64,000 bases of DNA. Source: Escherichia phage vB_EcoM_G2285. Under the pieces are notes generated by a model. That model was not told where the DNA came from. It made no database searches and saw nothing but the letters and a program-made list of their open reading frames with translations. Shown one piece after another: positions 7,512-60,946 of the stretch; positions within the stretch are counted from its first letter, which is position 1, and the number at the start of each line of letters is the position of its first letter. Made by a program: the position numbers and the translations under genes. The stretch lies in sequence record MK327933.1. One strand, written 5' to 3'.

Positions 7512-8036
7512 TCATTTTAGCAAAATAAAATCAACTTGTTCAGCCAATGAACGTCTAAACATTAATTGACAACTTCCGAGGATGAAATCAGGTGCTTCAT
7601 AGACCGCGATGTAGTATCCTTTAGCTTTCAAGAGTTCAACATCCACCTGGTCATCAAACCATGCATAAACCGCGTCAACACTTTCAAATCCAAAATAGAA
7701 CCCTTGAGCCCAATCTTCGTTCAATTCAAATGTGTGCTCAATTCTATAGTATCTTAAGATATTTTGTTCAAGGAGTTTGTCTTCATTTACTGTAGGACGA
7801 TTAGGGACATTATAGTTGTCGCCGTGATGGTAGAAGTTACCTGAGATTATTCCATGTTTATCAAGGAACTCCCATGTTTCTTCAGAGTTGTCGGTGCCCG
7901 ACCAACCGTATGGCGAGCGAGGTTCTTTATTCCAAGAGGTTTCCCAAATTCTGACGGCTTTACCGTCTTCAATAGCAATTCCTGGTAATGATTCACGTTG
8001 AGTACAAAAACTACGTTCTACGCGGTAAACTAACAT
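7512..8036 (-). CDS. hypothetical protein
   Basis: 174 aa ORF with SD GAGGAGAA upstream. Confidence 0.5.
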   Translation of the reverse strand: MLVYRVERSFCTQRESLPGIAIEDGKAVRIWETSWNKEPRSPYGWSGTDNSEETWEFLDKHGIISGNFYHHGDNYNVPNRPTVNEDKLLEQNILRYYRIEHTFELNEDWAQGFYFGFESVDAVYAWFDDQVDVELLKAKGYYIAVYEAPDFILGSCQLMFRRSLAEQVDFILLK

Positions 8037-8062
8037 ATTATTCTCCTCTGGTTGATATGGTT

Positions 8063-8091
8063 ATAATATCAAAACCAGAGGAAAAGTAAAC
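8063..8091 (-). promoter_or_regulatory. early-type promoter (-35 GTTTAC, 17 bp, -10 TATTAT) inside palindrome
   Basis: minus GTTTAC-N17-TATTAT; arms CCTCTGGTT/AACCAGAGG flank the -10. Confidence 0.5.
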
Positions 8092-8095
8092 AACT

Positions 8096-8515
8096 TTATG
8101 CAAAAGATGCTGGACAATATTTTTTGATTTGGAACTCAGGAACTACCATGAACTGTCCAGCGAAAACGATGTTATAAAGCTTAACACCATCTTCTACCCA
8201 TTGGTCCGAAATAAAACCGGCAACTTGATTCGTTGTCCATGGAGACCCGTCAGTTGCAGCAGCAATAGTAAATTCATGGTCTTTTACAACTAAAACAGAC
8301 CTGCACAGTTTCCATTTGAACGCACGTTCTTCTGGCTCAATGAACTGGCTTTTAACGTAACCAATGTTACCATCGGCGTCACGAACTTTAACTTCGTTAC
8401 GTCCAAAAACCGGATCACTCACAGAAAGAACTTCAACCAACTTCCCAGCAACTTTAGAGCGAGAAGCATCCGATACGTGTACATAATCACCTGTAGAGAG
8501 ATTCACAATATTCAT
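8096..8515 (-). CDS. hypothetical protein, tandem paralog A
   Basis: 139 aa; shares GFISDQWVEDG.KLYNIVF block with next ORF. Confidence 0.55.
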   Translation of the reverse strand: MNIVNLSTGDYVHVSDASRSKVAGKLVEVLSVSDPVFGRNEVKVRDADGNIGYVKSQFIEPEERAFKWKLCRSVLVVKDHEFTIAAATDGSPWTTNQVAGFISDQWVEDGVKLYNIVFAGQFMVVPEFQIKKYCPASFA

Positions 8516-8524
8516 AATAATTCC

Positions 8525-8980
8525 TTAAGCTTTACGAGGAGACACATAGCGAGTGATTTCAGATTCTTTAACAACTCGGAAGTCACCTAAGAATACGATA
8601 TTGTATAACTTTTCACCATCTTCAACCCATTGGTCACTAATGAAGCCACACATGGTATCAGTTGTGCTTGGATAACCGTATTCATCGATGAAGTCAAATT
8701 CTTTATCAGTCTGGAATTCAACACCTTTACACAAGGCCCATTTGAACTGTACATTAGGTTCAGTAGAAGCAGATGGAGCGCTCACACGAGTTTCCAGGAA
8801 TTTAGGACTTACGTAAGCGTACTGAGTATCCTGACGTCCAAAACTAGGAATGATTCGAACTTTAACTTCTTTAATACGTCCCATGCCATTTGTGCGAAGT
8901 CCGACAACTTCAACCAGACGACCTGCGGCTTTAGACCGGGATGCAGTTGATACAAGAAGGATTTCACCAATAGTAATCAT
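8525..8980 (-). CDS. hypothetical protein, tandem paralog B
   Basis: paralog of 8096-8515; start set at internal ATG because track extension overlaps promoter -10. Confidence 0.55.
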   Translation of the reverse strand: MITIGEILLVSTASRSKAAGRLVEVVGLRTNGMGRIKEVKVRIIPSFGRQDTQYAYVSPKFLETRVSAPSASTEPNVQFKWALCKGVEFQTDKEFDFIDEYGYPSTTDTMCGFISDQWVEDGEKLYNIVFLGDFRVVKESEITRYVSPRKA

Positions 8981-9045: not shown

Positions 9046-9723
9046 TTATCGCTGTTTTACACTTAACGGGTCAGGATTCTCAGGGACATCTTCAAGGCCA
9101 AGCGCATAACGCTGAGCATATTTTAACATCAAAATATCTTTAGCACAATCATGAATACTATCATGGGCAACGAATCCTTTTAGCGTACCCATCGGTAATG
9201 GACATATACTTAATCCTCGTGTCAACGAGTAAGCTTCGATTGCCGTACGAATATCACGTTGAGCCCAGAATTTAACCGGTTCTAATTTATCAGTATCAAT
9301 ATCTGGTTCAAGAACACCTTCATCACGATAGAGGTCACGAATCAAATCGACCAAGATCGGGAAGTCAAAGCTCATACCACGGCACCACATCTGTGATTTC
9401 CATTGGTCAACTTTATTAGCTCGGCAATAATCTAAAAAGATTTTAATGCCTTCAAGCGTAGTGACATCGTCTTCAGACGGAGCCAAGTTTTTACGTGCTT
9501 CAGTCGATTGTTCTTTCCACCATTTCATAGTGGATTTAGCGAAAACTCGCTTCCCTTTCTGAGAAGCTAAATTAAATTTAATTCGCTTACCTCGTTGAAC
9601 AAGTTCTTCAAATGATTCAACAACTTCAGGGTCGGAATTATATGCAATAACCGCAAGGTCAATAACAGCCGCTTTTGATGTATTGCCGAATGTTTCAAAA
9701 TCTATAATAACATCAGTGCTCAT
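9046..9723 (-). CDS. dexA: exonuclease A
   Basis: 225 aa; MSTDVIIDFETFG..AVIDLAVIA..CRGMSFDFPILVDLIRD matches recalled T4 DexA. Confidence 0.88.
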   Translation of the reverse strand: MSTDVIIDFETFGNTSKAAVIDLAVIAYNSDPEVVESFEELVQRGKRIKFNLASQKGKRVFAKSTMKWWKEQSTEARKNLAPSEDDVTTLEGIKIFLDYCRANKVDQWKSQMWCRGMSFDFPILVDLIRDLYRDEGVLEPDIDTDKLEPVKFWAQRDIRTAIEAYSLTRGLSICPLPMGTLKGFVAHDSIHDCAKDILMLKYAQRYALGLEDVPENPDPLSVKQR

Positions 9724-25754: not shown

Positions 25755-26915
25755 TCATTCCGGGTACCTCAAAGCGTCATCAGAGTTAGTTATATCAATA
25801 ATAGATATAGAGTTTTCTGCTAACCCGGTTTTAGATAATTGACGTTTATAATATCTTTCACAATATGTACACGTCGTCCCGCAGATTTCATTAGCACAAT
25901 CGAAATCTGGATGTCTGAACCACCTTTTTTCTAAAAAGCCATCTAACAAAGAGGTTTCAATATTTACTGTATGTGAAAACTCTGTCTCATTTTCAAGAGT
26001 GAAAATGGTCTCTAAAGGCTTCCACAGTTCTAACAAATTACCTTCAAACTTTTCAGAAGCATAAGCTTCAAGAACTTTCAAAATGTAGTCTGTGCTACCT
26101 GTACGTCCTGAAACTTTGAATTGAGTGATACCAATATCATTATAAAGTTTCAAATCTTGAGGACGAACAAAACGAGTTCTCAACCAGTTAAATGGATCTG
26201 TATCACGAGCTTTAATACAGTGCTGCATTGGATATCCATTTAAAGATTTGGCATCATCAGCTGTAACATCAGTACTATGGAAAATATAGCAAGAGTCACG
26301 ATAACTACAATGTGTTGTATACCCTTTACCAGCATTAGAACAGAACTCATTTACAAGAACTTCAAATATTATATTGTTCTTATTGCAAAACTCTGCTGCA
26401 CGCTTCAGGAAAGAAACTGAACGGTTCTTATGAATTCCACAGCAGACCTTTTTGATATTATATTGGTCATGCAAGTATTTGATTTGAGTTACAGCATCGA
26501 CATGTAGAATTGTTGAAACTTCAATCTCAATATCTTTATTGACTTCACGAACAATTTCCATAACAACAGGGTTAGCGATAGTAATACGCCATACGCCTAT
26601 TGACCAAAGATACTGAACATAATCCTGAATAGCTTTCTTCTTCCACTCAACTAGTTCTCTTTTTGAACCAGGATTTATCGTGTTGAGTGTATAGTTAAAG
26701 CAAATACCTAATTCGTTACAACGTTTAACGTAATCTTCTAACATCTTTTTGTCAACGTCAGGAAGCCTAAAATCAGGTCTGGCTGCTACAAAAGCCATTT
26801 CTCTTGTAGAGCCGTATACTTCGTTTATCAAGCTATTAGGATAAGTTTTATTGAGCTCTACGATTTTATCAAGAAGAGCTAAATCAAAATTCGTTCCGAT
26901 TTTAAAAGTATTCAT
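25755..26915 (-). CDS. Cys-rich enzyme of unknown function (weak peptidase-U32-like resemblance)
   Basis: 386 aa; C-terminal C-x4-C-x3-C-x2-C cluster plus VCCG, CSNAG, HCSYRDSC. Confidence 0.5.
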   Translation of the reverse strand: MNTFKIGTNFDLALLDKIVELNKTYPNSLINEVYGSTREMAFVAARPDFRLPDVDKKMLEDYVKRCNELGICFNYTLNTINPGSKRELVEWKKKAIQDYVQYLWSIGVWRITIANPVVMEIVREVNKDIEIEVSTILHVDAVTQIKYLHDQYNIKKVCCGIHKNRSVSFLKRAAEFCNKNNIIFEVLVNEFCSNAGKGYTTHCSYRDSCYIFHSTDVTADDAKSLNGYPMQHCIKARDTDPFNWLRTRFVRPQDLKLYNDIGITQFKVSGRTGSTDYILKVLEAYASEKFEGNLLELWKPLETIFTLENETEFSHTVNIETSLLDGFLEKRWFRHPDFDCANEICGTTCTYCERYYKRQLSKTGLAENSISIIDITNSDDALRYPE

Positions 26916-26972
26916 TTTTTTTGCATCTCACGTTAATTGACGCGATGGTTTTTGCAGGTCTTACTTAAATTA

Positions 26973-27374
26973 TTATAGATTCGGTTTATACGATTTAAAT
27001 GTTTCGAATTCGCCTTTATTCATAAGAGCTTTGAATTCGTCAGGACGCATAGCTTTGTCGTCGATAATCCAATCATATACTGGTTTATGTGTTAGCAAAT
27101 TATGGTACTTCAAACCAATGTTTTCCAAGTTCTGAATCAGACTTGGGAGAATGTCAATTGCTATACGACCAGGACCTACTGACTTCATACCGCGAGCAGT
27201 GTAAAGCGTTATGGTATGCCCTGCATCATACAGGGCATTAATGGCAGACACCATTTCGACGTCAGGTTTGAAGTTCACGTAATCACGATTGTTATTCCAC
27301 TCTGTTATACAATCATCGACATCAAAACAAAGATTAAGCATGTTTTCTACACGGTGCATTAGATTCGTTCCCAT
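26973..27374 (-). CDS. HAD-superfamily phosphatase
   Basis: 133 aa; motif I LCFDVDDCIT (DxDx[TV]) near N-terminus; alternative start 27359 overlaps upstream stop. Confidence 0.6.
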   Translation of the reverse strand: MGTNLMHRVENMLNLCFDVDDCITEWNNNRDYVNFKPDVEMVSAINALYDAGHTITLYTARGMKSVGPGRIAIDILPSLIQNLENIGLKYHNLLTHKPVYDWIIDDKAMRPDEFKALMNKGEFETFKSYKPNL

Positions 27375-29044
27375 TGATGAGTGATATCGCCACCGATTGG
27401 ACGATAGGAAACACCAGTTTCTTTATCAGTTAGTACCCATTTACCAGGATTTTTTGTAATCAGAGTAGCCGTTACAGGTTCTGCTACGTCATAACTAATA
27501 GAGCCGTCCTGAAGTACACGGCCCATATTACGTAATTGCTTAGTCAGAAGTTCCATACCTTTATAATATGCGGCTACCGCTTTAAGTGGATTATTCTTAA
27601 AATAACCACCTAATGCAATCCAGATAATTGCCACTGCCAAATGATGATACTCGTTAAATGAACTCATCTTTCCATATTTGTAAACTAATGGATTGATGTT
27701 AATAGTCACATTACAAGTTGTTTCATCAATAGTAAACTGGCCCCAGGTCGGATTAGCGTTGAATTCATCATAACCTGAAACAGCATAAAGCACTTTAGCT
27801 TCATCATACAATTTTGGCCCGTAAATCTTGGTTTCGCCAAAATATCCACGAGGGTCGATAAACTTGACTTCGCCGTTATCAGTAATCATAGTATTACTGA
27901 AGTTCGGGTCACCATGAATAACAGAGTACTGTCCCTGAGAACGGTTATGATAGCGAATAAGATGTTCTAAAGCTTGTTTCAGCATTGGCTTCAGACGTCC
28001 AATCTTAGTGTAGTTCACATGTGTGATTTTACCAAATGAATCAATCAATGGTTGAATGCTTTCACAACGATCAATAACTTTCGTATAGAATTCTTTAGTG
28101 AAATCACGACGAACAGTTTCAGGACTTACAAAATAAGTGTCTGTGCTGAATTTCAGTGCATCTAAAATTGCATCAACAATTTGTGGACGAGCAAGACTTG
28201 ATTTGGATTTAATATATTCAAATGCCGGCTTACCTTTAATGCGTTCCATTTCAAAGTTATTTTCATTAACAGAAACTAACTGAGGAACTGAATCTGATTT
28301 CACTTTAAGATACCATGAAATCTCATCTTTCTGAAGAGCTCGACCTTGTTCGGTTAATGCGAATTTAGTTACAGTTTCTTCACCAATTTCAACTGCATTA
28401 AAACTACGATTAAGTTCACGAACTTCATGGGCCTTTTCAAGTTTAGGCATATCACCAAGGTCGATGATATTCATAAGCTCTGATTTATTGAATGCGCCGC
28501 TGTAAAGGAATTCTACGAAATCACGTCCTTTGCAGTATTCATGAATTTCCTCATCAGTAGAACCCATGTAGAATTCCCAGTCTTTGAACTGATAAATTCC
28601 TACAACATTACCACCTGTTGAACCTACGTTAGTGATATTTTCACCGTCGAAATTATATCGACATTCGTCACCCTTAACATAGATTGCGTTAACATTCCAA
28701 GACCATGAACCAAAATCTGGAATAATATCACACCAGTTAACAATTACGTTATGGCCGTCTAAATCTTTGTGTAATTTAGCAAGAGCATAAGCAGAACCAT
28801 ACGCTTCATCAACTGTACGAATAGTCACATTGAACCCTTCTTGCTCACAATAAGCTCGAACAGTTTCAGCAAATTTTGAATGAACTACTACAATAATTTC
28901 ATCTGCGCCAAGGTCAGAATAAATTGTATACAAATTGCTCAGAATAGTGTCTTGTTTATAGTTAACAAGCACCTTGGGAATATGATGCGTTATTGGATAT
29001 AAACGAGTTGCCAGACCAGCACCAAGAATAACAGCTTTTTTCAT
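27359..29044 (-). CDS. bifunctional sugar-phosphate nucleotidyltransferase / APH-like kinase
   Basis: 561 aa; N-terminal ILGAGLATRL NTP-transferase motif; C-terminal VIHGDPNFSN..IDPRG kinase catalytic-loop-like motif. Confidence 0.6.
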   Translation of the reverse strand: MKKAVILGAGLATRLYPITHHIPKVLVNYKQDTILSNLYTIYSDLGADEIIVVVHSKFAETVRAYCEQEGFNVTIRTVDEAYGSAYALAKLHKDLDGHNVIVNWCDIIPDFGSWSWNVNAIYVKGDECRYNFDGENITNVGSTGGNVVGIYQFKDWEFYMGSTDEEIHEYCKGRDFVEFLYSGAFNKSELMNIIDLGDMPKLEKAHEVRELNRSFNAVEIGEETVTKFALTEQGRALQKDEISWYLKVKSDSVPQLVSVNENNFEMERIKGKPAFEYIKSKSSLARPQIVDAILDALKFSTDTYFVSPETVRRDFTKEFYTKVIDRCESIQPLIDSFGKITHVNYTKIGRLKPMLKQALEHLIRYHNRSQGQYSVIHGDPNFSNTMITDNGEVKFIDPRGYFGETKIYGPKLYDEAKVLYAVSGYDEFNANPTWGQFTIDETTCNVTININPLVYKYGKMSSFNEYHHLAVAIIWIALGGYFKNNPLKAVAAYYKGMELLTKQLRNMGRVLQDGSISYDVAEPVTATLITKNPGKWVLTDKETGVSYRPIGGDITHQWERI

Positions 29045-29085
29045 GTTGAAGTCCTCATTGGTAAGTAGGAGTATTGTACACTATT

Positions 29086-29229
29086 CTAGTTAAAGCATTC
29101 ATACTTTGCTTGTAGTCCAATCATAATCCATCCAATCACAAGTGTTGGAATCATTACCGGAGCCGTTAAGCTCCAGTAGATAGTCATGAAAAGCATCAAT
29201 AGTAAAAGTCCTATTGTTATTGCTTTCAT
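29086..29229 (-). CDS. 47 aa hydrophobic membrane peptide, absent from ORF track
   Basis: hand translation MKAITIGLLLLMLFMTIYWSLTAPVMIPTLVIGWIMIGLQAKYECFN; ATGA overlap with upstream stop. Confidence 0.4.
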   Translation of the reverse strand: MKAITIGLLLLMLFMTIYWSLTAPVMIPTLVIGWIMIGLQAKYECFN

Positions 29230-29861
29230 TGTTCGCCTCGTAACATGGCACCTAGTGCACCGCCTGGATGGAACTTAAGGAAGTCATTAGAGGTAAATCC
29301 ACGTTCAGACGAAAGGTTGATAGCAAACGTATCGATAAGCGCTAACAACAATGTAGTTGACATCGTCGGAGCTAAAGAGTTCTCGTCAACTTCTACCGCG
29401 ATACCGGTACAGAACGTATAATCAAAAAGAGCTTCGTATTCTTGTGGAATGTCTGGGTTACAATGCAACAGAATCTGTTTGACGTTCGGACGAATCATTT
29501 TAAGATGCTTAGCCACGCCTATCATTTCTTCAGTCTTACCAGAACGACTGATGTGAACTAATACATCATTAGGTGCAATAAATCCTGCATCACCGTGAGA
29601 ATAATGCCCAGTGTTCAAGTACATACTCGGGATACCGAGTGAAGCAAATGTCTCAGAAGCTTTAGTTGCGATATTAGCATTCTTACCAACACCTGTAATA
29701 ATTACTCGGCTTTCATAATTACTAAGTCCAGGGCGTCGAAGAGTTTCTAGAATAGCATTATAACGAGCAGGGTTTTGACTAATTACTTCGGCCATAGTGG
29801 CCAAAGAAGAAGCTTGTTTTATGATTGCGTCAATAGCGATAGTAATAGGAGTAGTTTTCAT
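29226..29861 (-). CDS. SIS-domain sugar-phosphate isomerase (arabinose-5-phosphate isomerase-like)
   Basis: 211 aa; ITGVGKNANIATK, HGDAGFI, ISRSGKTEE, APTMSTT, FHPGGALG match KdsD/GutQ SIS-domain blocks. Confidence 0.7.
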   Translation of the reverse strand: MKTTPITIAIDAIIKQASSLATMAEVISQNPARYNAILETLRRPGLSNYESRVIITGVGKNANIATKASETFASLGIPSMYLNTGHYSHGDAGFIAPNDVLVHISRSGKTEEMIGVAKHLKMIRPNVKQILLHCNPDIPQEYEALFDYTFCTGIAVEVDENSLAPTMSTTLLLALIDTFAINLSSERGFTSNDFLKFHPGGALGAMLRGEQ

Positions 29862-29901: not shown

Positions 29902-30905
29902 TCAAAAATCGAACATATCGAACAGAGATGCTTTCTTCTCGTAATCGAGTTTCGCTGCTGATGTGAATCCTTCAAGTGGTTTAATAAATGTCTTCTCAAG
30001 GAGAACAGTGTAGTCCATCCAATGAAGTACATCGTCTTTAATTAAATCTGTGATTTCAGTACCAGAAGGCCATGCGATACATTTATCACCGAATGGGTTT
30101 CCTTCACGTAAAGGCAGAACATATACTTTTTCACCTTCTACAACTTGCGGTGCATCGATATTACCTTTGATAGCCCGGTTATACGTCAGAATTCCACGAA
30201 TATGGAACGGGCATTTAGGACCAGGGAATCCACCGACGTCATATTTAGCAATGTTATTCGCAGAAGATACCGACGCGATGCTAATATAATTCAATTGACG
30301 GAATTCTTTTTCAAACTCTTTAAAATATTCTTGTAATGATTCTTCGCCTTCCTGAAGCATACGACGAATACATTCCTTAAGAGCTTTCTGTACTGCTTTA
30401 GGAGTCGAAGATTTCTGAGTCTCTAGACCCATGATTTTAAGCTTAGGTTCAGCGTATCTGGTTCCTTCCATATCCCACACGTTTAATGCATAACGTTTCT
30501 TACCAGTCCAGAATCCACCAATACCTTTAGAACCAAGCGGAGGACCAGCAATAGCTTCTCGGTCCATGAACATCAAATGTTGTTTATTGTTCATGTATTC
30601 ACACATTTCACGGAAACCTCTATCAATAGCTGGTTCCATACGTTCACGTGCAAACTTATCTAAGAAGTCTACCCAATGGTTGGTATCACGGAATTTAGAT
30701 TCACCAACCTTATCAATAATTTTATCTGCAGATACGTAAATGGAGTCTGTATCACCATAAAGAACGAAAGCTTCACCTTCTGTACCACAAACTTCATTCA
30801 GATATTCATTAACTTTACGTTCAATCCACTGTAAAGCCATTTGACCAAATGTTGTGATTGCAGTAGCATTACGCAAATCGTAATAACGGAACCAAACGTT
30901 ACCCA
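29902..30905 (-). CDS. 43: DNA polymerase gp43, cistron B exon 2 (palm/thumb, YGDTDS)
   Basis: translation from GNVWFRYYDLRNATAIT through YGDTDS to ..FDMFDF matches recalled RB69/T4 gp43 C-terminus; 5' boundary set at inferred splice site. Confidence 0.85.
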
Positions 30906-31137
30906 CATTATGTTCGACTGAGGTCGTTAATCTCAGCCCGGAATTATATCCAGCTGCATGTCGCCATGCAGAGCAGACTATATCATCATCTTTATAGATG
31001 CTATGCGCTTCCACCCACTTGGGCGTACTCCTTTCGGATAGTCGTTGCACGTTCCTCATAGAGGCTTCGCTCAGGATTGTCTACTAGAGATGTCCCCTGA
31101 ATTCACATAGTTTAAAGTGCGCCGAGTTATTTGGTTA
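30906..31137 (-). ncRNA. group I intron (td/nrdD-like, ORF-less, 232 nt) in gene 43
   Basis: interrupts motif B codons (..LYGAL | GNVWF..); core elements CTCTAGTAGACAATCC and GATATAGTCTGCTCTGCATGGCGACATGCAGC; starts TAA after exon U, ends ..CATAATG. Confidence 0.75.
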
Positions 31138-31306
31138 ACGCACCATACAGACTATTAATAAGCAATTTACGGTTAATCTGAGCCGTATTACCTGCTACTT
31201 CAGCCAATTCGCAGTTTTTAAGATGTTGTTCTAAATCAGCTTTGCTTAAGGACTTGAGATAAGAAATTTCATCTTGTGAAAAGTCTTGAGTGTATGTTAA
31301 ATTCAT
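31138..31306 (-). CDS. 43: DNA polymerase gp43, cistron B exon 1 (motif B)
   Basis: ATG overlapping HEG stop (TAATG); encodes MNLTYTQDF..NTAQINRKLLINSLYGA, the polymerase K-x3-NSxYG region. Confidence 0.7.
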
Positions 31307-32127
31307 TATATTTTATTCCTACAGTTATCAAAGTGCCAACGTTTCATACCAGATAATATACCTTCTTTACCACAGTGCGGACACGTTGCTTTAATCTCTT
31401 TAGCTTTAGCCCAGTATTCTTTCTTAGAGTCTGAAAGGGCCTTATTATGGGCTTCCGAATTGGTTTTGCCTAATCTTGTTTTAACTATATTAGGATTCTC
31501 TGAAATTCTTTGCTTCATCCTAGAAGACTGTTTAGAACGTTGTTCTTTCGACCAGCCATCAGATAAAACTTTCTTTTGTTCTTCAGTTTTGGTTGTACCG
31601 AAGAGATGGGATTTATTTTTAGAATAGTATTCTTTGAGACCTATAGATTGTTTTAACGAAGTTTCAGCAGAATGCTTTGTTCCTATTTTATTTTTACTTG
31701 CTACAGCCCAATTGGCTGCTGCTATGGCTTTATACTTTTCAGGATTTTTGGCTATAGTGATTTTAATAGAATCTGAAACCTTTTTAGCAATCTCTTGGGA
31801 CTTCATAGGATTTGGTAGATTTAAAGAATTTACATAATCCCAACCGCCTTTACCACCAGGATTAAGATTATATGTATCATTTCTTTTTACAAAATCTTTA
31901 TCTACAATTTTAGCTTCAAGGGCATAAGCTTCATCTTCATTATCGAATACTTCCAAAATGGTCTTTTGGAGATTTTCTATACCGTATTTTTCAACGGCTG
32001 CTTTAACAACAGGTCCAGAACCGCGGTAAATATCGTTTTGATTAGACTCATCACACTTATGAACACCTACATAAATTTTACCATTAACGACATTAGTAAT
32101 TTGGTAAACAGTATAAACAGTTTTCAT
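31306..32127 (-). CDS. GIY-YIG homing endonuclease inserted within gene 43
   Basis: VYQITNVVNGKIYVGV GIY-YIG motif; C-terminal CPHCG..MKRWHFDNC zinc finger; start set at ATG with SD GGAGG. Confidence 0.75.
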   Translation of the reverse strand: MKTVYTVYQITNVVNGKIYVGVHKCDESNQNDIYRGSGPVVKAAVEKYGIENLQKTILEVFDNEDEAYALEAKIVDKDFVKRNDTYNLNPGGKGGWDYVNSLNLPNPMKSQEIAKKVSDSIKITIAKNPEKYKAIAAANWAVASKNKIGTKHSAETSLKQSIGLKEYYSKNKSHLFGTTKTEEQKKVLSDGWSKEQRSKQSSRMKQRISENPNIVKTRLGKTNSEAHNKALSDSKKEYWAKAKEIKATCPHCGKEGILSGMKRWHFDNCRNKI

Positions 32128-32153
32128 AATATCCTCCATTAGTTGATAAGACT

Positions 32154-32183
32154 ATAATACCACATCCTTGTGGTATTGTAAAC
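32154..32183 (-). promoter_or_regulatory. early-type promoter for the intragenic endonuclease
   Basis: minus GTTTAC-N18-TATTAT then AGTCTTATCAACTAATGGAGGATATTATG. Confidence 0.45.
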
Positions 32184-33703
32184 TATTTTGAAGCCAAAAT
32201 CTCTTTAATTATTTCAGCATTTCGCTGTGCAGCCAACATGTAGCGCTTATGTTCTTTACGCTGCAAGAATACCTTAGTGATTTCTGTTGGAATCACACCA
32301 TCACGGTCTTTATAATACATCATGCCGTTAGGAGAGCAACTGTACACATCTGAAGGACGTTCGGCGATTGCGTTAATATACTCATGCAGTGGAGCTACTT
32401 TAAACGTTCCTGCTATTGTTTCCGGGCTAATATTCACTTGGCGAATAATACTTGGATACAGAGATGTAAGGTCGAAACTCATTACATATTTGTATCGATT
32501 TGGAATAGGTTCCTTAACAAAAGCGCCAGGATAAGGTTGAACCGGGTGAGAACGACCTTGTGGAATCACCTTGTTCTGCTCTTTAAGGCTATTAAAAATA
32601 ATAGCATCCCATGTTTTAATTGGGCTAAACACAGATTGAATCTGTATCTTAGCATAATAACCCATGTCCAAGCTCAAGTTGATGAACTGACGCTTAGCAT
32701 CAATTTGCAATACACGATACACGTCGATAATGTTATAAGAAATATATCGTTGGTGATTGCTTTCACGAAGCTTAGAAATAGGGCCGTCATATTTCAGTTT
32801 ACCAACGTTCAATTCAAATTCTGAAATGTAATCCAGAGAATATGACGGTTGATTGGTAAAAGAGAATTTTTTGTAAAGGTCAATGTAATCAAGAACAGAG
32901 ATACCGAACAATGTAATGATTTCACGAGAACCATACATGTTTTCGATAACTTTAACACGAGTTTTACGATGTGGTGACAACCGTTTTGCTGTGGATTCGC
33001 CAAAAATATTCTTGATTCGGTTATACACATATGGAATATCAAATGACTCAACGTTCCATCCAGTCAAAATGACAGGAGTTTTCTGTTGCCAGAAGTTGAG
33101 ATATTCCATCAACAATTCTTTTTCGTTATCGAACGGCATATAAATGATTTTATCGATAATTTCAGATGGAACTTCATCACCGCCTTGTTCTTGAAGCTTA
33201 GCAGCGATTTCAATAGACCATTCTTCTACATTACCATACGGAGAATTCAATAGATCAAATACATAGAACCTGTCGTCAATTGAGTCATAATGGGTGATAG
33301 CATCAATCGGATGTTTTGCTTGTGACGGCTCAGGGAACCCATCCGGAGATGTTACTTCGATGTCGAAGTTAGCCACACGAATTTTTGTATGGTCGTATTT
33401 GATTTCATAGTTATAAGTGTCAGACAAATACGCCAATTTGAAATCGTCCATGCCAAGTGCTTCAAGTCCGATATCTTCCATGCGTTTAATCCATTGGGAG
33501 GCATCACGCATATTAGCGAACAGCTTACGAGTACACGGCTTACCGTAGATATCGAAATATTTCGTAGCCTGACTTTCTGGACAATGAGCAAACAGTGATG
33601 GTTTATATTCTACTTCACGAGTACGTTCACGGCCATTAGAATCGATGTAACGTTCAAAAATTGAATCACCAATCTGTTCAACCGTTAAGTAAAATTCTTT
33701 CAT
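32183..33703 (-). CDS. 43: DNA polymerase gp43, cistron A (N-terminal and 3'-5' exonuclease domains, motif A)
   Basis: 506 aa; MKEFYLTVEQIGDSIFERYID..FDIEV..YNIIDV..DLTSLYPSII matches recalled RB69 gp43 N-terminal half; ends at in-frame stop. Confidence 0.9.
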   Translation of the reverse strand: MKEFYLTVEQIGDSIFERYIDSNGRERTREVEYKPSLFAHCPESQATKYFDIYGKPCTRKLFANMRDASQWIKRMEDIGLEALGMDDFKLAYLSDTYNYEIKYDHTKIRVANFDIEVTSPDGFPEPSQAKHPIDAITHYDSIDDRFYVFDLLNSPYGNVEEWSIEIAAKLQEQGGDEVPSEIIDKIIYMPFDNEKELLMEYLNFWQQKTPVILTGWNVESFDIPYVYNRIKNIFGESTAKRLSPHRKTRVKVIENMYGSREIITLFGISVLDYIDLYKKFSFTNQPSYSLDYISEFELNVGKLKYDGPISKLRESNHQRYISYNIIDVYRVLQIDAKRQFINLSLDMGYYAKIQIQSVFSPIKTWDAIIFNSLKEQNKVIPQGRSHPVQPYPGAFVKEPIPNRYKYVMSFDLTSLYPSIIRQVNISPETIAGTFKVAPLHEYINAIAERPSDVYSCSPNGMMYYKDRDGVIPTEITKVFLQRKEHKRYMLAAQRNAEIIKEILASK

Positions 33704-48739: not shown

Positions 48740-49277
48740 ACTCATACGCCTGGAATGCATCGTATACGTCTTTTTCTGTTTTAGATTGAGCATAATTCAA
48801 CGCATCAGCGATTTGCCATTTTTCTGCATCTTCAATATGTTTAGCATATGTGCGTTTAACATAAGGAGAAAGTACTTTATCTACATTCGCAAATGTAGTT
48901 CCGCCATACTGGTGTGAAGCAACTTGCGCGGTAATTTGTGCCATAATTGCAGTAGCAACACCGATTGATTTAGGAGTTTCAATCTGTGCATTACCTAGCT
49001 TAAATCCGTTTTCAAGCATTCCTTTTAAATCTACTAAACAACAATTAGTAAATGGAAGAGCAGGGGAATAATCAATATCGTGCACGTGAATAATTCCGCT
49101 TTCATGCGCTTTCATAATAAAAGACGGGACTATATTTTTGGCAATGTGTTTAGACACAATACCAGCCATAAGGTCCCGTTGAGTTGGAAAAACACGAGAA
49201 TCTTTATTAGCATTCTCGTTTAAAAGGTCTTTATTAGTTTTATGAATCAATCCTTCAATTTCTTTTTCAATTGTCAT
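48740..49277 (-). CDS. nrdD: anaerobic ribonucleotide reductase NrdD, exon 1
   Basis: MTIEKEIEGLIHKTNKDLL.. matches recalled T4 NrdD N-terminus; exon1+exon2 = 605 codons. Confidence 0.85.
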
Positions 49278-49747
49278 TTTAAACTCTTTCTAAGCTGCTT
49301 CTTAAATGAAGCTATTAACTGTGTTTTGGTGTCAGATTCATTATATTCAAATCCTCTTTGAAGCATCTCAGCCATCATTTCCTCTTTTCCTAAACGAGAA
49401 AATTCCTTTGATTTATCTCCAACAAAATTAGGATGGATATTATTATCAGAATAATCTTGTTTCAAATAAGCAAGAAGAGATTCAAGCCATTCGAGGTAGT
49501 CGACATCACGACCTTTAAGACCAGAACGGTTGAACTTATGCTTCATTTGACCTTCTGCTGCGTTGCACAGATTACAGAGTAATCCACGAACTCTACCGGC
49601 TTTTGGCCCGTTTAATTCATGGTCGTGGTCAAGATGGTTACCTTGAACATCAGGGTCTAATTCACGGTGGCAAATAGGACACTTACCGTTCTGTGCATCA
49701 TAAAATTTTTGTTTTTCTTCTTTATATTTTGCGCCTGATAATAACAT
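49274..49747 (-). CDS. 49: endonuclease VII (Holliday junction resolvase)
   Basis: 157 aa; near-colinear with recalled T4 gp49 incl. CPICHRELDPDVQGNHLDHDHELNGPKAGRVRGLLCNLCN. Confidence 0.93.
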   Translation of the reverse strand: MLLSGAKYKEEKQKFYDAQNGKCPICHRELDPDVQGNHLDHDHELNGPKAGRVRGLLCNLCNAAEGQMKHKFNRSGLKGRDVDYLEWLESLLAYLKQDYSDNNIHPNFVGDKSKEFSRLGKEEMMAEMLQRGFEYNESDTKTQLIASFKKQLRKSLK

Positions 49748-50508: not shown

Positions 50509-50844
50509 TTAACCGCGGAACTTATTGAGCTCTTCATAATCAATCCAGGATTCTAGTCTGGATGGCAAAGCAGATTCAATGTTCCACAGAAGATCTTCGA
50601 TGGCTTGTAGGCGATTATATTCTTCAACAGTAATAGTAACCATTGTTTCAGGCTTTTTAACCATCATGTCATTCATCAGAATGTACAGGTCTTCACAAAC
50701 AGCCAGGTCGTCCCATGTCCATATTTCAGCATCTCGAACCAATGAAGTCGGAATCGAATTTAAAACTTCAAGCTTAGTAGGAGCGTCAGGGCCGAGAAGA
50801 GTTGCTACAAATTTATATGCTTTGGCGAAATCAATATCGTTCAT
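50509..50844 (-). CDS. hypothetical protein
   Basis: 111 aa ORF. Confidence 0.45.
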   Translation of the reverse strand: MNDIDFAKAYKFVATLLGPDAPTKLEVLNSIPTSLVRDAEIWTWDDLAVCEDLYILMNDMMVKKPETMVTITVEEYNRLQAIEDLLWNIESALPSRLESWIDYEELNKFRG

Positions 50845-51104
50845 TTAAAATATTCTCGCAGTTGGTCAAATCCGCCAATGTGACTTCCGTCAGGAGCAAA
50901 CACTTGAGGCATAGTCAATCCGACTTGCGATTCACGTCCAAGCTTAACAAGAAGCTCAGTAATTTTCTCATCATCGAACACACCTTTTTCCGGCATAACA
51001 TTAATGAATTCGAATGGTTGTTTCTTAACAGTCAGCAATCGTTTCGCATTATCACAATAAATGCATTTATGAATAGTAGAGTCATACCCATACACTTTAA
51101 ACAT
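50841..51104 (-). CDS. nrdC: thioredoxin NrdC
   Basis: MFKVYGYDSTIHKCIYCDNAKRLL.. matches recalled T4 NrdC; CxxC redox motif. Confidence 0.9.
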   Translation of the reverse strand: MFKVYGYDSTIHKCIYCDNAKRLLTVKKQPFEFINVMPEKGVFDDEKITELLVKLGRESQVGLTMPQVFAPDGSHIGGFDQLREYFK

Positions 51105-51510
51105 TATTTTTCCTTTCATCGATTAAATATGCAATGCCAAATACAATACATGTAATAAAACCTGTGATACAGATAGAAACCAACAACACTGTACCAAAGA
51201 ACCAAATCAAGTTATCTTTAGTAGTTTGTTTGATATCCATCTCACGAATTTCTATAGCTATCGTATCACCTTTATTCAGAAGCGTATAAAACGATGGCGA
51301 TACACGCCTGTCAAAAACTCGTCCTTGTTCATCTTTATAGACTGCAATAAATTCTAATTTAGAATATTTTCCTGTAGATTGACCTGAGATTAATTCCACT
51401 ACCTCCACAGGAATTACTTTAGTTTCCATGTAAGTATTCTGGCTGCTCCAAATGAATGGAATAATGGCAAAAACTAAAGCTGTGATAAAACAACGAAGGC
51501 TATATCTCAT
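51097..51510 (-). CDS. membrane protein
   Basis: 137 aa, N- and C-terminal TM segments. Confidence 0.5.
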   Translation of the reverse strand: MRYSLRCFITALVFAIIPFIWSSQNTYMETKVIPVEVVELISGQSTGKYSKLEFIAVYKDEQGRVFDRRVSPSFYTLLNKGDTIAIEIREMDIKQTTKDNLIWFFGTVLLVSICITGFITCIVFGIAYLIDERKNNV

Positions 51511-54892: not shown

Positions 54893-55873
54893 TTATTTCA
54901 GTAAAGTTACTTCAGAGATTTCCTCCCAACCATCTTTGTCAGTTGAAATAAAATCTGCTACATAAAGAGCCGTACGTAATGATACATTGCGAAGACGAGA
55001 TACGTTAGCCTTCATCCAGGACAATGCTTTGTACGTTTCTGCATCAGTCAGACCACGTTTCTGCATCATGTCAGTAGATAATATTACATCTTCAACTCGA
55101 ACCATAATCTCTTCATTAGAGTGTACTCCAAGGTCGAGATACACTGAACGAGATACTAAAGCTTGAAGGTGAGGAGCAAGTTTCGAACCACGTTCTAACT
55201 CTTTATCGATATCAACGTTTGTAATGAAAACGATAGTACCTTCAAACTCAAATTCTTTATCGATACCCTTATCATCAAGATAAGATGATGCAGTGCTCCA
55301 GCAAACTTTGCGTTTATCACCGGTATCTAATGCTGCTTTAAGAAGGTTCAAGATGTCCATATCTGAGAATACGTCAACGTCGTCGATTAAGAGAACGCTG
55401 TCTGCATCACGGTTGAGCCAAAGTTGTTCGTAAAGGCCAATACCAGAGATTTTACCATTAATGCTTTTGTATTTGATGAAACCATTATCATTAGCATTAT
55501 TAAGTGCTTTATCCAGAGAATACGTCTTACCAATACCGGCTGCACCTGAAATAATGAGTGAACGAATTTTGCCATCGATAATGCCATTCGTCATCATGTT
55601 CATTACTTTAAAGCGTTTGTTGATACGAGTTTTCATATCTTCAGTGCTTTCAACAACTGCAACTGGTGATGTCTCAACTCCTTCCATTACGATGTCTGAT
55701 TTGAAGACCCATACTCCACGTTCAGAACCATCAATCATAACGAAAATTTTACCATCACCTAAGTGGGAACATTCAGGATTAAGCTTTGCCGGGAACCAGG
55801 TCTTTGTGGCAACATAAGAACCAGAGATTTCGTTATTACGATAGATACCTTTTTTGATTTGAACATTGAACAT
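54893..55873 (-). CDS. P-loop ATPase
   Basis: Walker A GAAGIGKTYS and Walker B VLLIDDVD; start set at ATG with SD GGAG. Confidence 0.55.
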   Translation of the reverse strand: MFNVQIKKGIYRNNEISGSYVATKTWFPAKLNPECSHLGDGKIFVMIDGSERGVWVFKSDIVMEGVETSPVAVVESTEDMKTRINKRFKVMNMMTNGIIDGKIRSLIISGAAGIGKTYSLDKALNNANDNGFIKYKSINGKISGIGLYEQLWLNRDADSVLLIDDVDVFSDMDILNLLKAALDTGDKRKVCWSTASSYLDDKGIDKEFEFEGTIVFITNVDIDKELERGSKLAPHLQALVSRSVYLDLGVHSNEEIMVRVEDVILSTDMMQKRGLTDAETYKALSWMKANVSRLRNVSLRTALYVADFISTDKDGWEEISEVTLLK

Positions 55874-55992: not shown

Positions 55993-56259
55993 TTACTTAT
56001 CGCACTTAGCAACATAATTAGGCATATCACAGAATACGGAGCGAGTAACTACTCGGCCCTTTGACCATGCTTCAGTTGCTTGTCCGGCCGTGCTATTAAT
56101 ATAGCTTGATCTAATGTTCTCAATACCCTGAGAATGTGATGCATTTACCGAACCGTTAGAAGGCCCAGAAGACTGGTTACCACCAGCTCCTGCGCCCGTG
56201 GTAGCACCAACAGAGAATGCCATCATTACTGCGAATAAACCAATTACTAATTTTTTCAT
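55993..56259 (-). CDS. secreted small protein
   Basis: 88 aa with signal peptide MKKLVIGLFAVMMAFSVGA. Confidence 0.5.
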   Translation of the reverse strand: MKKLVIGLFAVMMAFSVGATTGAGAGGNQSSGPSNGSVNASHSQGIENIRSSYINSTAGQATEAWSKGRVVTRSVFCDMPNYVAKCDK

Positions 56260-56286: not shown

Positions 56287-57276
56287 CTATTTATAGTAAG
56301 AATTATGATTTTCGAGATAGACTTGCTCAAGGAAGTCGTCCCAGAAACTCATATCTACTTTTTGTTGCATACCGTTCTTAGCGGCTTGTTCTGACGCATG
56401 TTCAACTTGGTCAACGATATCTTCTAGGAATTCTTGTACAGTTTTAAATGTATGTTTACCAAGCTTAACATCGAGAATAAATGGAGCATCCTGAAGTGGG
56501 TAAACCAGGTCGCCGGTTTTGTAAATTTCCAATAGTTGAAGTCCACCACGACATGCATGACTCAATGCTTTCCAGTCAATACCTTCGTTGGCTTCGGCCT
56601 TACGAGCACGTTCACCATAGTTCTCTTCCAGTTTAACCAGGATGGCATTGAACTCTTTATTGGTTAACGTGTCTTGGAATTTACGGTCTAACAGATTATA
56701 GAATGTTTGCTTACCTGTTTTCTCGTTTTCGGTTTCAACCCACGAAGCAAATTCACCTACAGGCAGAACATTCTTCATATGTGATAAACGAATTACTGCA
56801 CCATTATCAAAGTATTGTCCCCATTCATTAGAACGTTTAAGGGCTTGACGAAGAACAGCCAGTCGAGAACCCTTGACACCGTATTTAGAAGCTTGCTTAC
56901 GGACATACCCTAAATAAGATTTCATGTTAGTGGTATAGAAACGAGACCTGTTATCTTGAATATACTTCCATACATCAGGCAAATCAGATTTAACTACTAG
57001 ACTTGGTGGAGTGTGAAGCATATCTAATGCGACGGTTTCACCATCCGCAGCTAGTTTAAAGAAATATTTGAGACTATACAACTCATGGTCTACGTCGTCT
57101 TTTGTGTTCTTAGAAGATGTGTTATTCGTGTTCTTGCTCATGTGTTCTTTAACGTTACCGGTCAAGATATCACGAGCATGAGGGACATAAATTTCTTTAA
57201 AATCGACATCAGATTCAGGAGTAGACGTTCCATAAAGGTGGCTACCAAAGTAGCTTTTCATAATTGTTTTCATCAT
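56287..57276 (-). CDS. pol-beta-superfamily nucleotidyltransferase, function unknown
   Basis: 329 aa; FGSHLYGTSTPESDVDF = GS-x10-DxD minimal NTase signature. Confidence 0.55.
   Translation of the reverse strand: MMKTIMKSYFGSHLYGTSTPESDVDFKEIYVPHARDILTGNVKEHMSKNTNNTSSKNTKDDVDHELYSLKYFFKLAADGETVALDMLHTPPSLVVKSDLPDVWKYIQDNRSRFYTTNMKSYLGYVRKQASKYGVKGSRLAVLRQALKRSNEWGQYFDNGAVIRLSHMKNVLPVGEFASWVETENEKTGKQTFYNLLDRKFQDTLTNKEFNAILVKLEENYGERARKAEANEGIDWKALSHACRGGLQLLEIYKTGDLVYPLQDAPFILDVKLGKHTFKTVQEFLEDIVDQVEHASEQAAKNGMQQKVDMSFWDDFLEQVYLENHNSYYK
56288..56295 (-). promoter_or_regulatory. T4-type late promoter TATAAATA
   Basis: about 30 nt upstream of the secreted-protein ORF. Confidence 0.45.
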
Positions 57277-57755: not shown

Positions 57756-58286
57756 TTATTTCAAAGTTGGGATAATAGAATCGAGATAAGCTTTAAGAGC
57801 AACTGCCTCATCTTTGTCTAATGTAATGATATGTTGACGAAGGTCATCAATTTGGCGAATAACTACGACATCACCATCTTCATAAGAAGGATTAACGCCT
57901 AGGACTGTTGTATAGTCAGGGCGGTCCTGATTTGTAATAAAAGCATTACGGCATTTAGCCCATTGAAGTTTGGCCTTTTTGGCTGTTTCAGATTCCATTA
58001 ATTCTTTCACCTTAGTGACGAATGTTTTCCAATTATTAATAGAAAAACATTCATCTTCGGTTTCGATATTAACCCCACTATAAAGTCCGTGATAAAAACG
58101 AACTTGAAGGTCTTCATCAATGTTAATTACAGATGCATGACCGGGTGGATTGAGTTTCAAAATCTTGTCTAGTTCCATAGGAAGAATAGTAGCAGCATCA
58201 TCTTCTTGTGTCAGAACATACACATAACCACGTTTTTCGATACATAAATCACCGAACAACTCGGTTGTTTCAATTACAGTTTTCAT
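57756..58286 (-). CDS. hypothetical protein
   Basis: start set at first ATG (track start is TTG). Confidence 0.5.
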   Translation of the reverse strand: MKTVIETTELFGDLCIEKRGYVYVLTQEDDAATILPMELDKILKLNPPGHASVINIDEDLQVRFYHGLYSGVNIETEDECFSINNWKTFVTKVKELMESETAKKAKLQWAKCRNAFITNQDRPDYTTVLGVNPSYEDGDVVVIRQIDDLRQHIITLDKDEAVALKAYLDSIIPTLK

Positions 58287-58287
58287 A

Positions 58288-58467
58288 TTATTCACCAATT
58301 AAAGTTTCAACAAAATTCACCAAAGCATTCTGGCACGCATCAACCTGATTTTCATAAAAGTCTCCGGTATCATTTACCGCATGGTAAGCTACATCATTCA
58401 AATCTGAATCGGCTTCACGTAAGTCACGGATAAGGTCCATCAATTTTTCAGCTTGTTCACGGGTCAT
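58288..58467 (-). CDS. 59 aa acidic protein, absent from ORF track
   Basis: hand translation MTREQAEKLMDLIRDLREADSDLNDVAYHAVNDTGDFYENQVDACQNALVNFVETLIGE. Confidence 0.35.
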   Translation of the reverse strand: MTREQAEKLMDLIRDLREADSDLNDVAYHAVNDTGDFYENQVDACQNALVNFVETLIGE

Positions 58468-59126: not shown

Positions 59127-59429
59127 TTAGATAGATGTAGGCTCTAATTTTATTTTCATGAACTCGGCAAATTGTCTGGCAGTTTTTATGCCTTGTTCAT
59201 GACATTCAAATGCATCATCACAGGGGCTATTTTTGTAATGCTTTGCCATATACTTATAGAATTTTTCAGAATTCTCGACATTTTGAATTTCAAACAAAGT
59301 ATATACGTTTTTAATCCCTGATTCCATAAAGTTATCAAAATATGGGTCGATATATGCAGTACCAACGATAGGAGTTGTTGCTGCAAAAAACCCCAGCATC
59401 GCCATGACAGCTATCGCTCTTAAGGCCAT
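59127..59429 (-). CDS. rI: lysis inhibition regulator RI
   Basis: 100 aa; MALRAIAVMAMLG.. signal-anchor, DPYFDNFMESGIKNVYTLFE.., KNSPCDDAFEC match recalled T4 RI. Confidence 0.85.
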   Translation of the reverse strand: MALRAIAVMAMLGFFAATTPIVGTAYIDPYFDNFMESGIKNVYTLFEIQNVENSEKFYKYMAKHYKNSPCDDAFECHEQGIKTARQFAEFMKIKLEPTSI

Positions 59430-59681: not shown

Positions 59682-60263
59682 TTATAACAACCCTGTCAAA
59701 TCATTCCAATGCTTCCGGCATAATGACACATATCTATCAGTATCACCAATTTCAATTTGACTGCCATCTGTAATTGGAAGTCCGTCTTCCGTGACTCTAG
59801 CTACCATTGTGGCCTTTTTACCGCAATGACAGACACCTTTAAGTTCAACAAGCTTATCGGCAATAGCCATTAATGCTTGAGAACCTTCAAATAGATTACC
59901 TTTAAAATCTGTTCGTAGTCCATATGCCATTACCGGCACATTGTATACGTCAACAATACGACTAAGTTGATACACCTTTTCAGTAGTTAAGAACTGAGCT
60001 TCGTCAACAAATACGCAGTGAATATCCTTTTGTGCTGCAGCCCATTTATAAAATTCAAAGATATCCATGTCTTTTGTAATTATATTGGCGTCCTGACGAA
60101 TACCAATACGAGAGACTATTTCACCTTTTGAATCGCGAGTATCAATAGCCGGTTTAAGAACTAATACACCCATGCCACGTTCTTTATAGTTATGTGCGGC
60201 AGTAAGTAATGAAGCAGACTTACCAGCGTTCATAGCGGCATAGGTAAAAATTAAACTAGCCAT
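59682..60263 (-). CDS. tk: thymidine kinase
   Basis: 193 aa; Walker A AAMNAGKS, VDEAQF, C-terminal zinc ribbon CHCG..C. Confidence 0.92.
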   Translation of the reverse strand: MASLIFTYAAMNAGKSASLLTAAHNYKERGMGVLVLKPAIDTRDSKGEIVSRIGIRQDANIITKDMDIFEFYKWAAAQKDIHCVFVDEAQFLTTEKVYQLSRIVDVYNVPVMAYGLRTDFKGNLFEGSQALMAIADKLVELKGVCHCGKKATMVARVTEDGLPITDGSQIEIGDTDRYVSLCRKHWNDLTGLL

Positions 60264-60272
60264 AAGAGTCCC

Positions 60273-60455
60273 TTATAGTGAATTCACGTAGTCAATGAGT
60301 TCTTGTTCTTTCCTGTCAAATGATTCCAACAATGCTTGATATTCTTCGACCGTCAAAGGAGCATATTCATCATACGCATTGGTGGCTGCTTGTTCATCTA
60401 ATAGGTCATGGATAAGTTCGAACAGTTTAGCTTTCTCTTCTTTAGTTAATTTCAT
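60273..60455 (-). CDS. hypothetical small protein
   Basis: 60 aa acidic ORF. Confidence 0.4.
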   Translation of the reverse strand: MKLTKEEKAKLFELIHDLLDEQAATNAYDEYAPLTVEEYQALLESFDRKEQELIDYVNSL

Positions 60456-60946
60456 TTAGGTTCCCAATCAACAATCACAATTTCTAGTTTAGTGGAATAC
60501 GTATCTAAAATCTCTTCGATGACATCCCAGTTTCCACCACCAATACCTGCACCAATTCTTGGCATATAAATTACAGGCTTTGTTATCTTATTCTTTCCGA
60601 ATTCATTTAATTCTATTATACAATTCATTAAAGCATAGTACTCAAAATTAGGTCCCGGCTCAAACTGCGTATAAAGATTAAAGCAATAAGCTTTATGGGT
60701 CTTAAAATATTTTTCATAAACCGAATAAGTCCCGAGTTTAGACTCGTCTCCGAATTCGGTTTGAAGTTTATCGGCTTCTAAAATTTTTGGATAAGCCTTT
60801 GCTAATTGACCTGCCACACCGGCGCCCATTGTATGAAAACAATTACACCCATGAGCTATATTATTACCTTTAGAAAACAGGGCGACAATATCGCCCTTGA
60901 TATAGTTTTTAATCACTTGCTGCAAGTCCTCTAGTATAAGAGTCAA
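60452..60946 (-). CDS. macro-like / Rossmann-type nucleotide-processing domain protein
   Basis: 164 aa; HGCNCFHTMGAGVAGQLAKA and PRIGAGIGGG glycine-rich loops resembling macro (or LOG/SLOG) domains. Confidence 0.45.
   Translation of the reverse strand: MTLILEDLQQVIKNYIKGDIVALFSKGNNIAHGCNCFHTMGAGVAGQLAKAYPKILEADKLQTEFGDESKLGTYSVYEKYFKTHKAYCFNLYTQFEPGPNFEYYALMNCIIELNEFGKNKITKPVIYMPRIGAGIGGGNWDVIEEILDTYSTKLEIVIVDWEPK

Follow-up and report, generated by a model that had tools for sequence, protein, structure and literature searches.

What does the nucleotidyltransferase gene that lies between nrdC and tk in Escherichia phage vB_EcoM_G2285 do for the phage? The gene was analyzed within a 64,000-nucleotide stretch of sequence record MK327933.1 (the window), for which an earlier note, made from the letters alone, had called a polymerase beta (Pol-beta)-type nucleotidyltransferase with an intact acidic triad and had left its function open. 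For this function, a specific prediction based on RlaP, the RNA-ligase-associated Pol-beta nucleotidyltransferase, already exists. The gene is an ortholog of T4 nrdC.11 and belongs to the PF10127/RlaP family, and its product is predicted, with high confidence, to be an active Pol-beta/RlaP-family enzyme. The explanation that we favor, and which we hold to be moderately probable as a whole, is that NrdC.11 restores nucleotides on nuclease-damaged tRNA before ligation by Pnkp/Rnl1.

The 329-amino-acid open reading frame (ORF) at 56287..57276 on the minus strand is confirmed by the ORF list, exactly as delimited in the earlier note. Pfam places its product in PF10127 with an E-value of 6e-13 and 49.4 bits against a gathering cut-off of 23, the match being limited to profile positions 20-145 of 249 and to residues 4-138 of the protein, and the PHROG 388 profile ('nucleotidyltransferase') matches over the full length (E=3e-126). 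The protein shares 100% identity with its counterpart in phage CEV1, 99.4% with the 'nucleotidyltransferase' of Escherichia coli O157 typing phage 3, about 79% with the Tequatrovirus proteins, and 53-70% with the products labelled 'nrdC.11' in JS98 and Aeromonas phage 25. An NrdC.11 ortholog is encoded in 1,542 phage records, and the family as a whole comprises 3,241 clusters at 50% identity (E<=1e-3), most members being 310-350 amino acids long. T4 NrdC.11, an uncharacterised 38.9-kDa protein of the nrdC-mobD region that also belongs to PHROG 388, occupies the same position between nrdC and tk and aligns over its full length with the window protein. The gene and its family are thus already catalogued and annotated; it is the biochemistry of RlaP that has been newly described.

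The features of the gene and its product are as follows (residue numbers refer to the 329-amino-acid protein).

56287..57276, minus strand: complete ORF of the NrdC.11-type nucleotidyltransferase (stop codon 56287-56289; alternative start ATG 57273-57271)
56983..57276, minus strand: N-terminal Pol-beta nucleotidyltransferase core, about residues 1-98, with strands 3-10, 24-31, 45-49 and 62-68 and helices 69-87
57241..57249, minus strand: hG[GS] motif F10-G11-S12
57202..57210, minus strand: DxD metal-binding motif D23-V24-D25 (gat gtc gat)
57088..57090, minus strand: D63, in an hDh pattern on strand 62-68
57022..57024, minus strand: D85, an extra conserved acidic residue on helix 81-87
56290..56982, minus strand: C-terminal domain, residues 99-329, modelled as long helices with a beta-meander at 177-201

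The N-terminus of the ORF reads MMKTIMKSYFGSHLYGTSTPESDVDF, in which residues 10-26 form the motif FGSHLYGTSTPESDVDF. On its own, the short pattern G[GS]x(9-13)Dx[DE] is weak and not diagnostic; it occurs in 6 of the 91 ORFs of at least 100 amino acids in the window, compared with 3.6 +/- 1.8 in shuffled ORFs. The motif can be taken as a true catalytic signature because of the PF10127 score, the full-length match to PHROG 388 and the conservation of its residues in homologs. Among 72 diverse homologs (34-52% identity), which were obtained from a 50%-clustered search, an initial search having returned near-identical phage proteins only, G11, S12, D23 and D25 are invariant, and D61, D63 and D85 are conserved in at least 90%. 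D63 is retained in 24 of 25 cellular operon-linked orthologs and replaced by Glu in the remaining one, and it is probably the third catalytic carboxylate or metal ligand. The original call of a Pol-beta-type nucleotidyltransferase is borne out by these three lines of evidence, and clear homology to a structural protein, which the earlier note had named as counter-evidence, does not occur.

Seventeen short RlaPs of about 255 amino acids were taken as the canonical set and compared with the phage family, profile to profile, by hhalign. The alignment covers residues 4-95 (probability 81%, E=1.2e-5) and pairs G11/S12 with G30/S31, D23/D25 with D42/D44, D63 with D75, and D85 with E97 of canonical RlaP. 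Because all six of these positions (G30, S31, D42, D44, D75 and E97) are invariant across the canonical set, the acidic triad survives proper alignment, D23/D25/D63 corresponding to D42/D44/D75. Canonical RlaPs, such as those of P. fluorescens and P. aeruginosa, which are encoded in RtcB operons, share with NrdC.11 the Pol-beta core, the hG[GS] and DxD motifs, the third Asp and the conserved acidic residue on the following helix, as well as, judging by the model, the layout of an N-terminal nucleotidyltransferase domain followed by a C-terminal helical domain. NrdC.11 differs from them in being about 75 residues longer and in carrying a beta-meander insert in the C-terminal domain. In the crystal structure of the P. 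fluorescens protein (PfRlaP), the nucleotidyltransferase and helical C-terminal domains form a cleft, and the last helix packs back on the nucleotidyltransferase domain.

An AlphaFold2 model built from the 72-sequence alignment has a mean pLDDT (predicted local distance difference test) of 93.8 and a pTM (predicted template modelling score) of 0.84. The modelled C-terminal domain is helical and ends in a long helix at 309-328, and its conserved basic and aromatic residues are Y132, R138, R223, K236, H240, R243 and K271. The region of roughly 250 amino acids that the earlier note described as helical is indeed mostly so, but in the model residues 177-201 form a three-stranded beta-meander. No relative was found in the PDB by sequence, whether the single protein or the 72-sequence profile served as the query, the PfRlaP structure lying outside the libraries searched. 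The top Foldseek matches, all of them remote Pol-beta nucleotidyltransferases, were kanamycin nucleotidyltransferase, 3c18 and HalB, with E-values of about 3e-3 and template modelling (TM) scores of at most about 0.37, and a viral fold library returned family members and remote viral nucleotidyltransferases only. The nearest solved folds, Hailong HalB (9dbh) and kanamycin nucleotidyltransferase (1kny and 6un8), consist of a Pol-beta core and then helices. As judged from the model, the Pol-beta fold class is confirmed, without a close structural template in these libraries, from which PfRlaP was missing.

The surroundings of cellular relatives point to RNA repair. Full-length relatives with 33-52% identity were collected in 80 bacterial and archaeal loci from a scan of species-representative genomes; ORFs were called in these loci, and the neighbors were clustered and annotated. 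The sequence available downstream was sufficient in 71 loci. In 18 of these, a canonical full-length RlaP (Pfam E=1e-77) directly follows the long form, that is, starts -100 to +400 nucleotides from its stop codon on the same strand. RtcB lies within 5.5 kb in 10 of the 80 loci and Ro60/TROVE in 4, and at least one of canonical RlaP, RtcB and Ro60 is present in 28. An unbiased Pfam scan of 140 operon-linked neighbors ranked RlaP first (15 proteins), followed by DEAD helicases, HD_4 and AAA_33 (3 each) and by RtcB, RtcA and RNase III (2 each). All 14 of the key residues are conserved between the window protein and the long paralogs in cellular operons; the active site of the phage branch is therefore the same as that of cellular proteins encoded in RNA-repair operons. 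What is added here is this finding that cellular members of the long branch lie in RtcB, RtcA and Ro60 operons, often just upstream of a canonical RlaP, with the same active-site residues.

The tandem arrangement of a long and a short gene was seen in loci L010, L013, L018, L026, L029, L031, L038, L041, L048, L050, L052, L058, L062, L067, L072, L074, L081 and L084; the match to the long form lies at about 8001-8950 in most of them, and both proteins keep the catalytic residues. In cells, the long form is thus often the upstream partner of canonical RlaP and not its substitute, which suggests that the two work as a module of two enzymes. Paired genes are not mentioned in the 2025 preprint on RlaP (10.64898/2025.12.29.696909), as far as a text search shows.

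The classic example of a phage that uses RNA repair as a counter-defence is T4, whose Pnkp and Rnl1 repair PrrC-cut tRNA, and RloC-type nucleases, which remove a nucleotide, have been proposed as the answer of the host to this repair. RlaP owes its name to being associated with RNA ligases, and the prediction made for it was that it replaces lost nucleotides ahead of ligation (PMC7824862; 10.64898/2025.12.29.696909); in jumbo phages, RlaP and RNA ligases show matching distributions (PMC7824862). Carruthers, Fatma and Huang reported that RlaPs of P. fluorescens and P. aeruginosa add one or two nucleoside monophosphates (NMP) or deoxynucleoside monophosphates (dNMP) to the 3'-OH of RNA, prefer Mn2+, and leave DNA and protein unmodified (10.64898/2025.12.29.696909). 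These Pseudomonas enzymes favor the 5' half of a cleaved-tRNA mimic and partly rescue aminoacylation of a tRNA that is missing one anticodon-loop nucleotide; in the same work, T4 NrdC.11 is named as an RlaP-family member of unknown function, and 5'-phosphate ligases, the type found in T4, are described as compatible with a 3'-OH product (10.64898/2025.12.29.696909). A relative of the phage studied here, NC_041863 (98% identical), encodes Rnl1, Pnkp and Rnl2.

According to the mechanism proposed here, a two-metal active site formed by D23, D25 and D63, aided by G11/S12 and D85, would transfer one or two nucleotides from nucleoside triphosphates, without a template, onto the 3'-OH of a broken RNA, the main substrate being the 5' half of a cleaved tRNA. 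Nucleotides removed by wobble-excising host anticodon nucleases of the RloC type would be restored in this way, and phage Pnkp, together with Rnl1 and Rnl2, 5'-phosphate ligases that depend on a 3'-OH end, would then rebuild a functional tRNA. That RNA 3' ends are the substrate is rather likely, given the homology to two Pseudomonas RlaPs with which the catalytic core alone is shared, and how many nucleotides are added, and what the biological target is, are likewise inferred. A role directed specifically against RloC is conceivable, but we regard it with some doubt. Slightly more speculative is a wider proposal, in which the long RlaP would be the missing third step of T4 tRNA repair, refilling the nucleotide excised by RloC, and in which a long and a short RlaP would form an obligate pair in bacteria and archaea. 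The T4 nrdC.11-mobD.3 segment can be deleted, and the gene is dispensable on laboratory hosts (PMC9825161), as expected if it is an accessory gene for counter-defence; one T4 record keeps just the last 39 codons of nrdC.11. If the proposed role in tRNA repair is true, it would add one more round to the arms race between tRNA cleavage and repair, provide a function for a gene present in more than 1,500 sequenced phages, and settle an old question, namely whether phage repair is truly defeated by RloC.

Several observations weigh against this explanation. Untemplated addition gives the correct base part of the time only. A core of about 95 residues alone is homologous to the characterised RlaPs by hhalign, with the Pfam match reaching residue 138 and taking in just the initial 40 or so residues (99-138) of the C-terminal domain, and the C-terminal domain beyond the Pfam match has no detectable similarity to canonical RlaP; because this domain is the expected substrate binder, the substrate specificity may differ. 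In addition, a hidden Markov model (HMM) of canonical RlaP misses the phage protein at E<=1. The transferase gene is not linked to the pnk and RNA ligase genes, which lie tens of kilobases away in NC_041863. In the 84.6-kb genome of Rheinheimera phage Barba19A, which encodes a homolog, neither an RNA ligase nor a polynucleotide kinase of the T4 type was detected, and an obligate link to a phage ligase is thereby weakened. Finally, a second, canonical RlaP is absent from the window and from 153 kb of the closest relative, so that the long form may be insufficient alone or may perform a different step. The dissimilar C-terminal domain and the failure of the canonical-RlaP HMM to detect the phage protein also set NrdC.11 apart within the RlaP family as a long branch of its own, and it is this C-terminal domain that defines the 'long' (about 330 amino acids) NrdC.11-type branch. 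This separation agrees with a published sequence-similarity network, which puts T4 NrdC.11 in cluster 5 and canonical RlaP in cluster 1a (10.64898/2025.12.29.696909).

Some of these observations would be accommodated if the enzyme tailed or maintained RNA 3' ends independently of ligation, for example by topping up the CCA ends of tRNAs or by tagging RNAs during infection. The position of the gene away from the ligase genes fits such a role, as does Barba19A, a phage without a T4-type ligase or Pnkp, where the gene for an HD-domain CCA-adding enzyme is located two genes upstream of the homolog (L002 6247-8900). E. coli hosts, however, have their own CCA-adding enzyme, and the cellular orthologs associate with the sealing systems RtcB, RtcA and Ro60. 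In total RNA, full-length species of the size of tRNA and rRNA are labelled by bacterial RlaPs as well, but with an annealed tRNA mimic the characterised enzymes act preferentially on the broken end in the anticodon loop rather than on the acceptor 3' end (10.64898/2025.12.29.696909). The class II CCA-adding enzymes and the poly(A) polymerase head (PF01743) are likewise Pol-beta enzymes that work without a template in the repair or synthesis of RNA 3' ends; the window protein has no PF01743 match, the C-terminal domains differ, and CCA specificity is without support. Ligation-independent tailing is thus a minor possibility, to be taken more seriously than the other alternatives, and among the families listed in the earlier note, 'RNA tailing/RNA modification' alone points in the right direction, namely that of PF10127/RlaP. 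The P-loop/AAA ATPase NrdC.10, encoded at 54893-55873, is a near neighbor on the same strand, and the two genes are widespread in T4-like phages (1,542 phage records for the transferase and 1,311 for NrdC.10), which speaks for a two-part module. An 88-amino-acid ORF intervenes in the window, however, no annotated ATPase lies beside the homolog in the Barba19A, Vibrio phage D482 and jumbo phage E9.1 loci, and conserved gene order among T4 relatives suffices to explain the proximity. Because NrdC.10-like ATPases do not accompany the cellular homologs (0 of the 80 loci), the partnership suggested in the earlier note was set aside as improbable.

The remaining enzymatic alternatives concern small molecules, signals and proteins. 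Synthesis of a nucleotide or oligonucleotide signal, or of a mimic that disturbs host immune signalling, as by CD-NTase-like or HalB-like enzymes, has perhaps a shade less to recommend it than the ATPase module: similarity to HalB appears to be limited to the fold, and a CD-NTase/cGAS-like assignment was rejected after a profile search that gave no PADLOC match at E<=0.1, no such Pfam family and none among the top structural matches. The idea of an anti-defence mimic acting on CBASS or Thoeris, raised in the earlier note together with the CD-NTase option, is tied to the protein by no evidence in this analysis. The least probable reading, and a very improbable one, is that of an MNT-type antitoxin, a protein-AMPylating enzyme or a small-molecule nucleotidyltransferase of the aminoglycoside/lincosamide type. 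It draws on a faint match of the N-terminal motif to MntA (E=0.065) and on the kanamycin nucleotidyltransferase structures at the top of the Foldseek results (E of about 3e-3). The match to the MntA equivalog reaches 13.1 bits against a cut-off of 60 and involves residues 9-26 only, a HEPN partner is absent among the neighbors, and the protein has 329 amino acids rather than the approximately 100-140 typical of MntA; the MNT option of the earlier note was rejected. TM-scores to kanamycin nucleotidyltransferase are 0.27-0.37, so distant a similarity that an aminoglycoside nucleotidyltransferase assignment was rejected, and bacterial RlaPs left proteins unmodified (10.64898/2025.12.29.696909). 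A Cid1/terminal uridylyltransferase, also named in the earlier note, was rejected because neither an NTP_transf_2 nor a PAP-associated domain was found by Pfam at E<=0.1; the Foldseek match to Cid1 (4ep7) had E=0.27 and a TM-score of 0.11.

The window is a Mosigvirus (T4-like) genome. Over the 3.6 kb around the transferase gene, it shares 97.9% identity with Escherichia coli O157 typing phage 3 (Mosigvirus, Straboviridae). The location in an nrdC-tk region, as given in the earlier note, is right, since Pfam finds nrdC, tk, the rI antiholin and endonuclease VII around the ORF.

49274-49747, minus strand: endonuclease VII (Pfam)
50841-51119, minus strand: nrdC, glutaredoxin (Pfam)
54893-55873, minus strand: P-loop ATPase NrdC.10 (PHROG 1250; weak AAA_22/AAA_16 matches)
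59127-59429, minus strand: rI antiholin (Pfam)
59682-60263, minus strand: thymidine kinase, tk (Pfam)

The neighbors of the transferase gene are a membrane protein, a y05I-like factor, the 88-amino-acid ORF and the ATPase. Because the genes here are all on the minus strand, transcription passes the transferase first and the ATPase lies downstream of it; the earlier note had correctly located it at 54893-55873 but had called it upstream. The T4 locus differs in minor ways only, in that mobD adjoins nrdC.11, which is not the case in this Mosigvirus, where the 88-amino-acid ORF separates the transferase from nrdC.10. This ORF (55993-56259, minus strand; PHROG 2243, of unknown function) has a hydrophobic, signal-peptide-like N-terminus and a middle part rich in Gly, Ser and Asn. 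Two genes upstream of the transferase, at 57756-58298 on the minus strand, both halves of a T4 y05I-like putative transcription factor are found (PF24449, E=5e-40; PF24448, E=2e-19).

Two start codons can be considered for the transferase. The ATG at 57273, one codon into the ORF, is the RefSeq start in a 97.9%-identical relative (987 nucleotides), and the upstream ORF, for a 157-amino-acid membrane protein, ends in a stop codon that overlaps both candidate ATGs (57276 and 57273; ATGATGA). Scans around the gene gave 16 promoter-like sites compared with 19.7 +/- 4.8 expected and 7 terminator-like sites compared with 3.5 +/- 1.8 expected, about 2 standard deviations above, neither being clearly in excess of chance; no promoter- or terminator-like site is positioned to make the transferase gene a separate unit. 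There are no tRNA genes in the window, the sole Rfam match being an unrelated group I intron.

Deposited sequences show some irregularities at this gene. In the E. coli phage records MT764208.1, MH560358.1 and OZ034687.1, the match to the transferase amounts to about 669 nucleotides in two pieces, covering 67-86% of the query, which suggests a shortened transferase lacking part of the middle of the protein. Many deposited phage genomes call the NrdC.11 nucleotidyltransferase, and sometimes the NrdC.10 ATPase, 'thioredoxin', an annotation error that has apparently spread from the locus names nrdC.10 and nrdC.11.

The neighbors of the homolog in Vibrio phage D482 and jumbo phage E9.1 were uninformative. 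Two genes downstream of the D482 homolog, at 9348-9719 of locus L003, lies a small YspA/SLOG-family protein (PF10686, E=3e-20), followed by a Dda-like helicase; SLOG domains usually bind nucleotides. Just past tk in the window, at 60452-60946 on the minus strand, is a Macro-domain ORF (Pfam E=3e-6), which corresponds to T4 tk.4, an A1pp phosphatase-like protein (PMC1524935). Macro domains are also found in RNA-repair contexts, and Barba19A encodes one too.

The group I intron mentioned above (30954-31170, minus strand; Rfam RF00028, 83.6 bits against a cut-off of 50) is complete and lies inside the gene for a family B DNA polymerase. This gene is split into an N-terminal part with the exonuclease and polymerase domains (32183-33703, minus strand) and a C-terminal part (29902-31059, minus strand), and an ORF for a GIY-YIG/SegE-like endonuclease (31306-32139, minus strand) lies between the two. 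In NC_041863, the DNA polymerase is encoded by a single uninterrupted coding sequence of 2,712 nucleotides. Adjoining the polymerase, within 25755-29861 on the minus strand, are ORFs whose products carry SIS (29226-29861), sugar-nucleotidyltransferase (27359-29044) and U32 peptidase (25755-26915) domains and which are annotated in the relative as KpsF, GlmU and peptidase, respectively. These three ORFs, we presume, may belong to the DNA sugar-hypermodification pathway of Mosigvirus.

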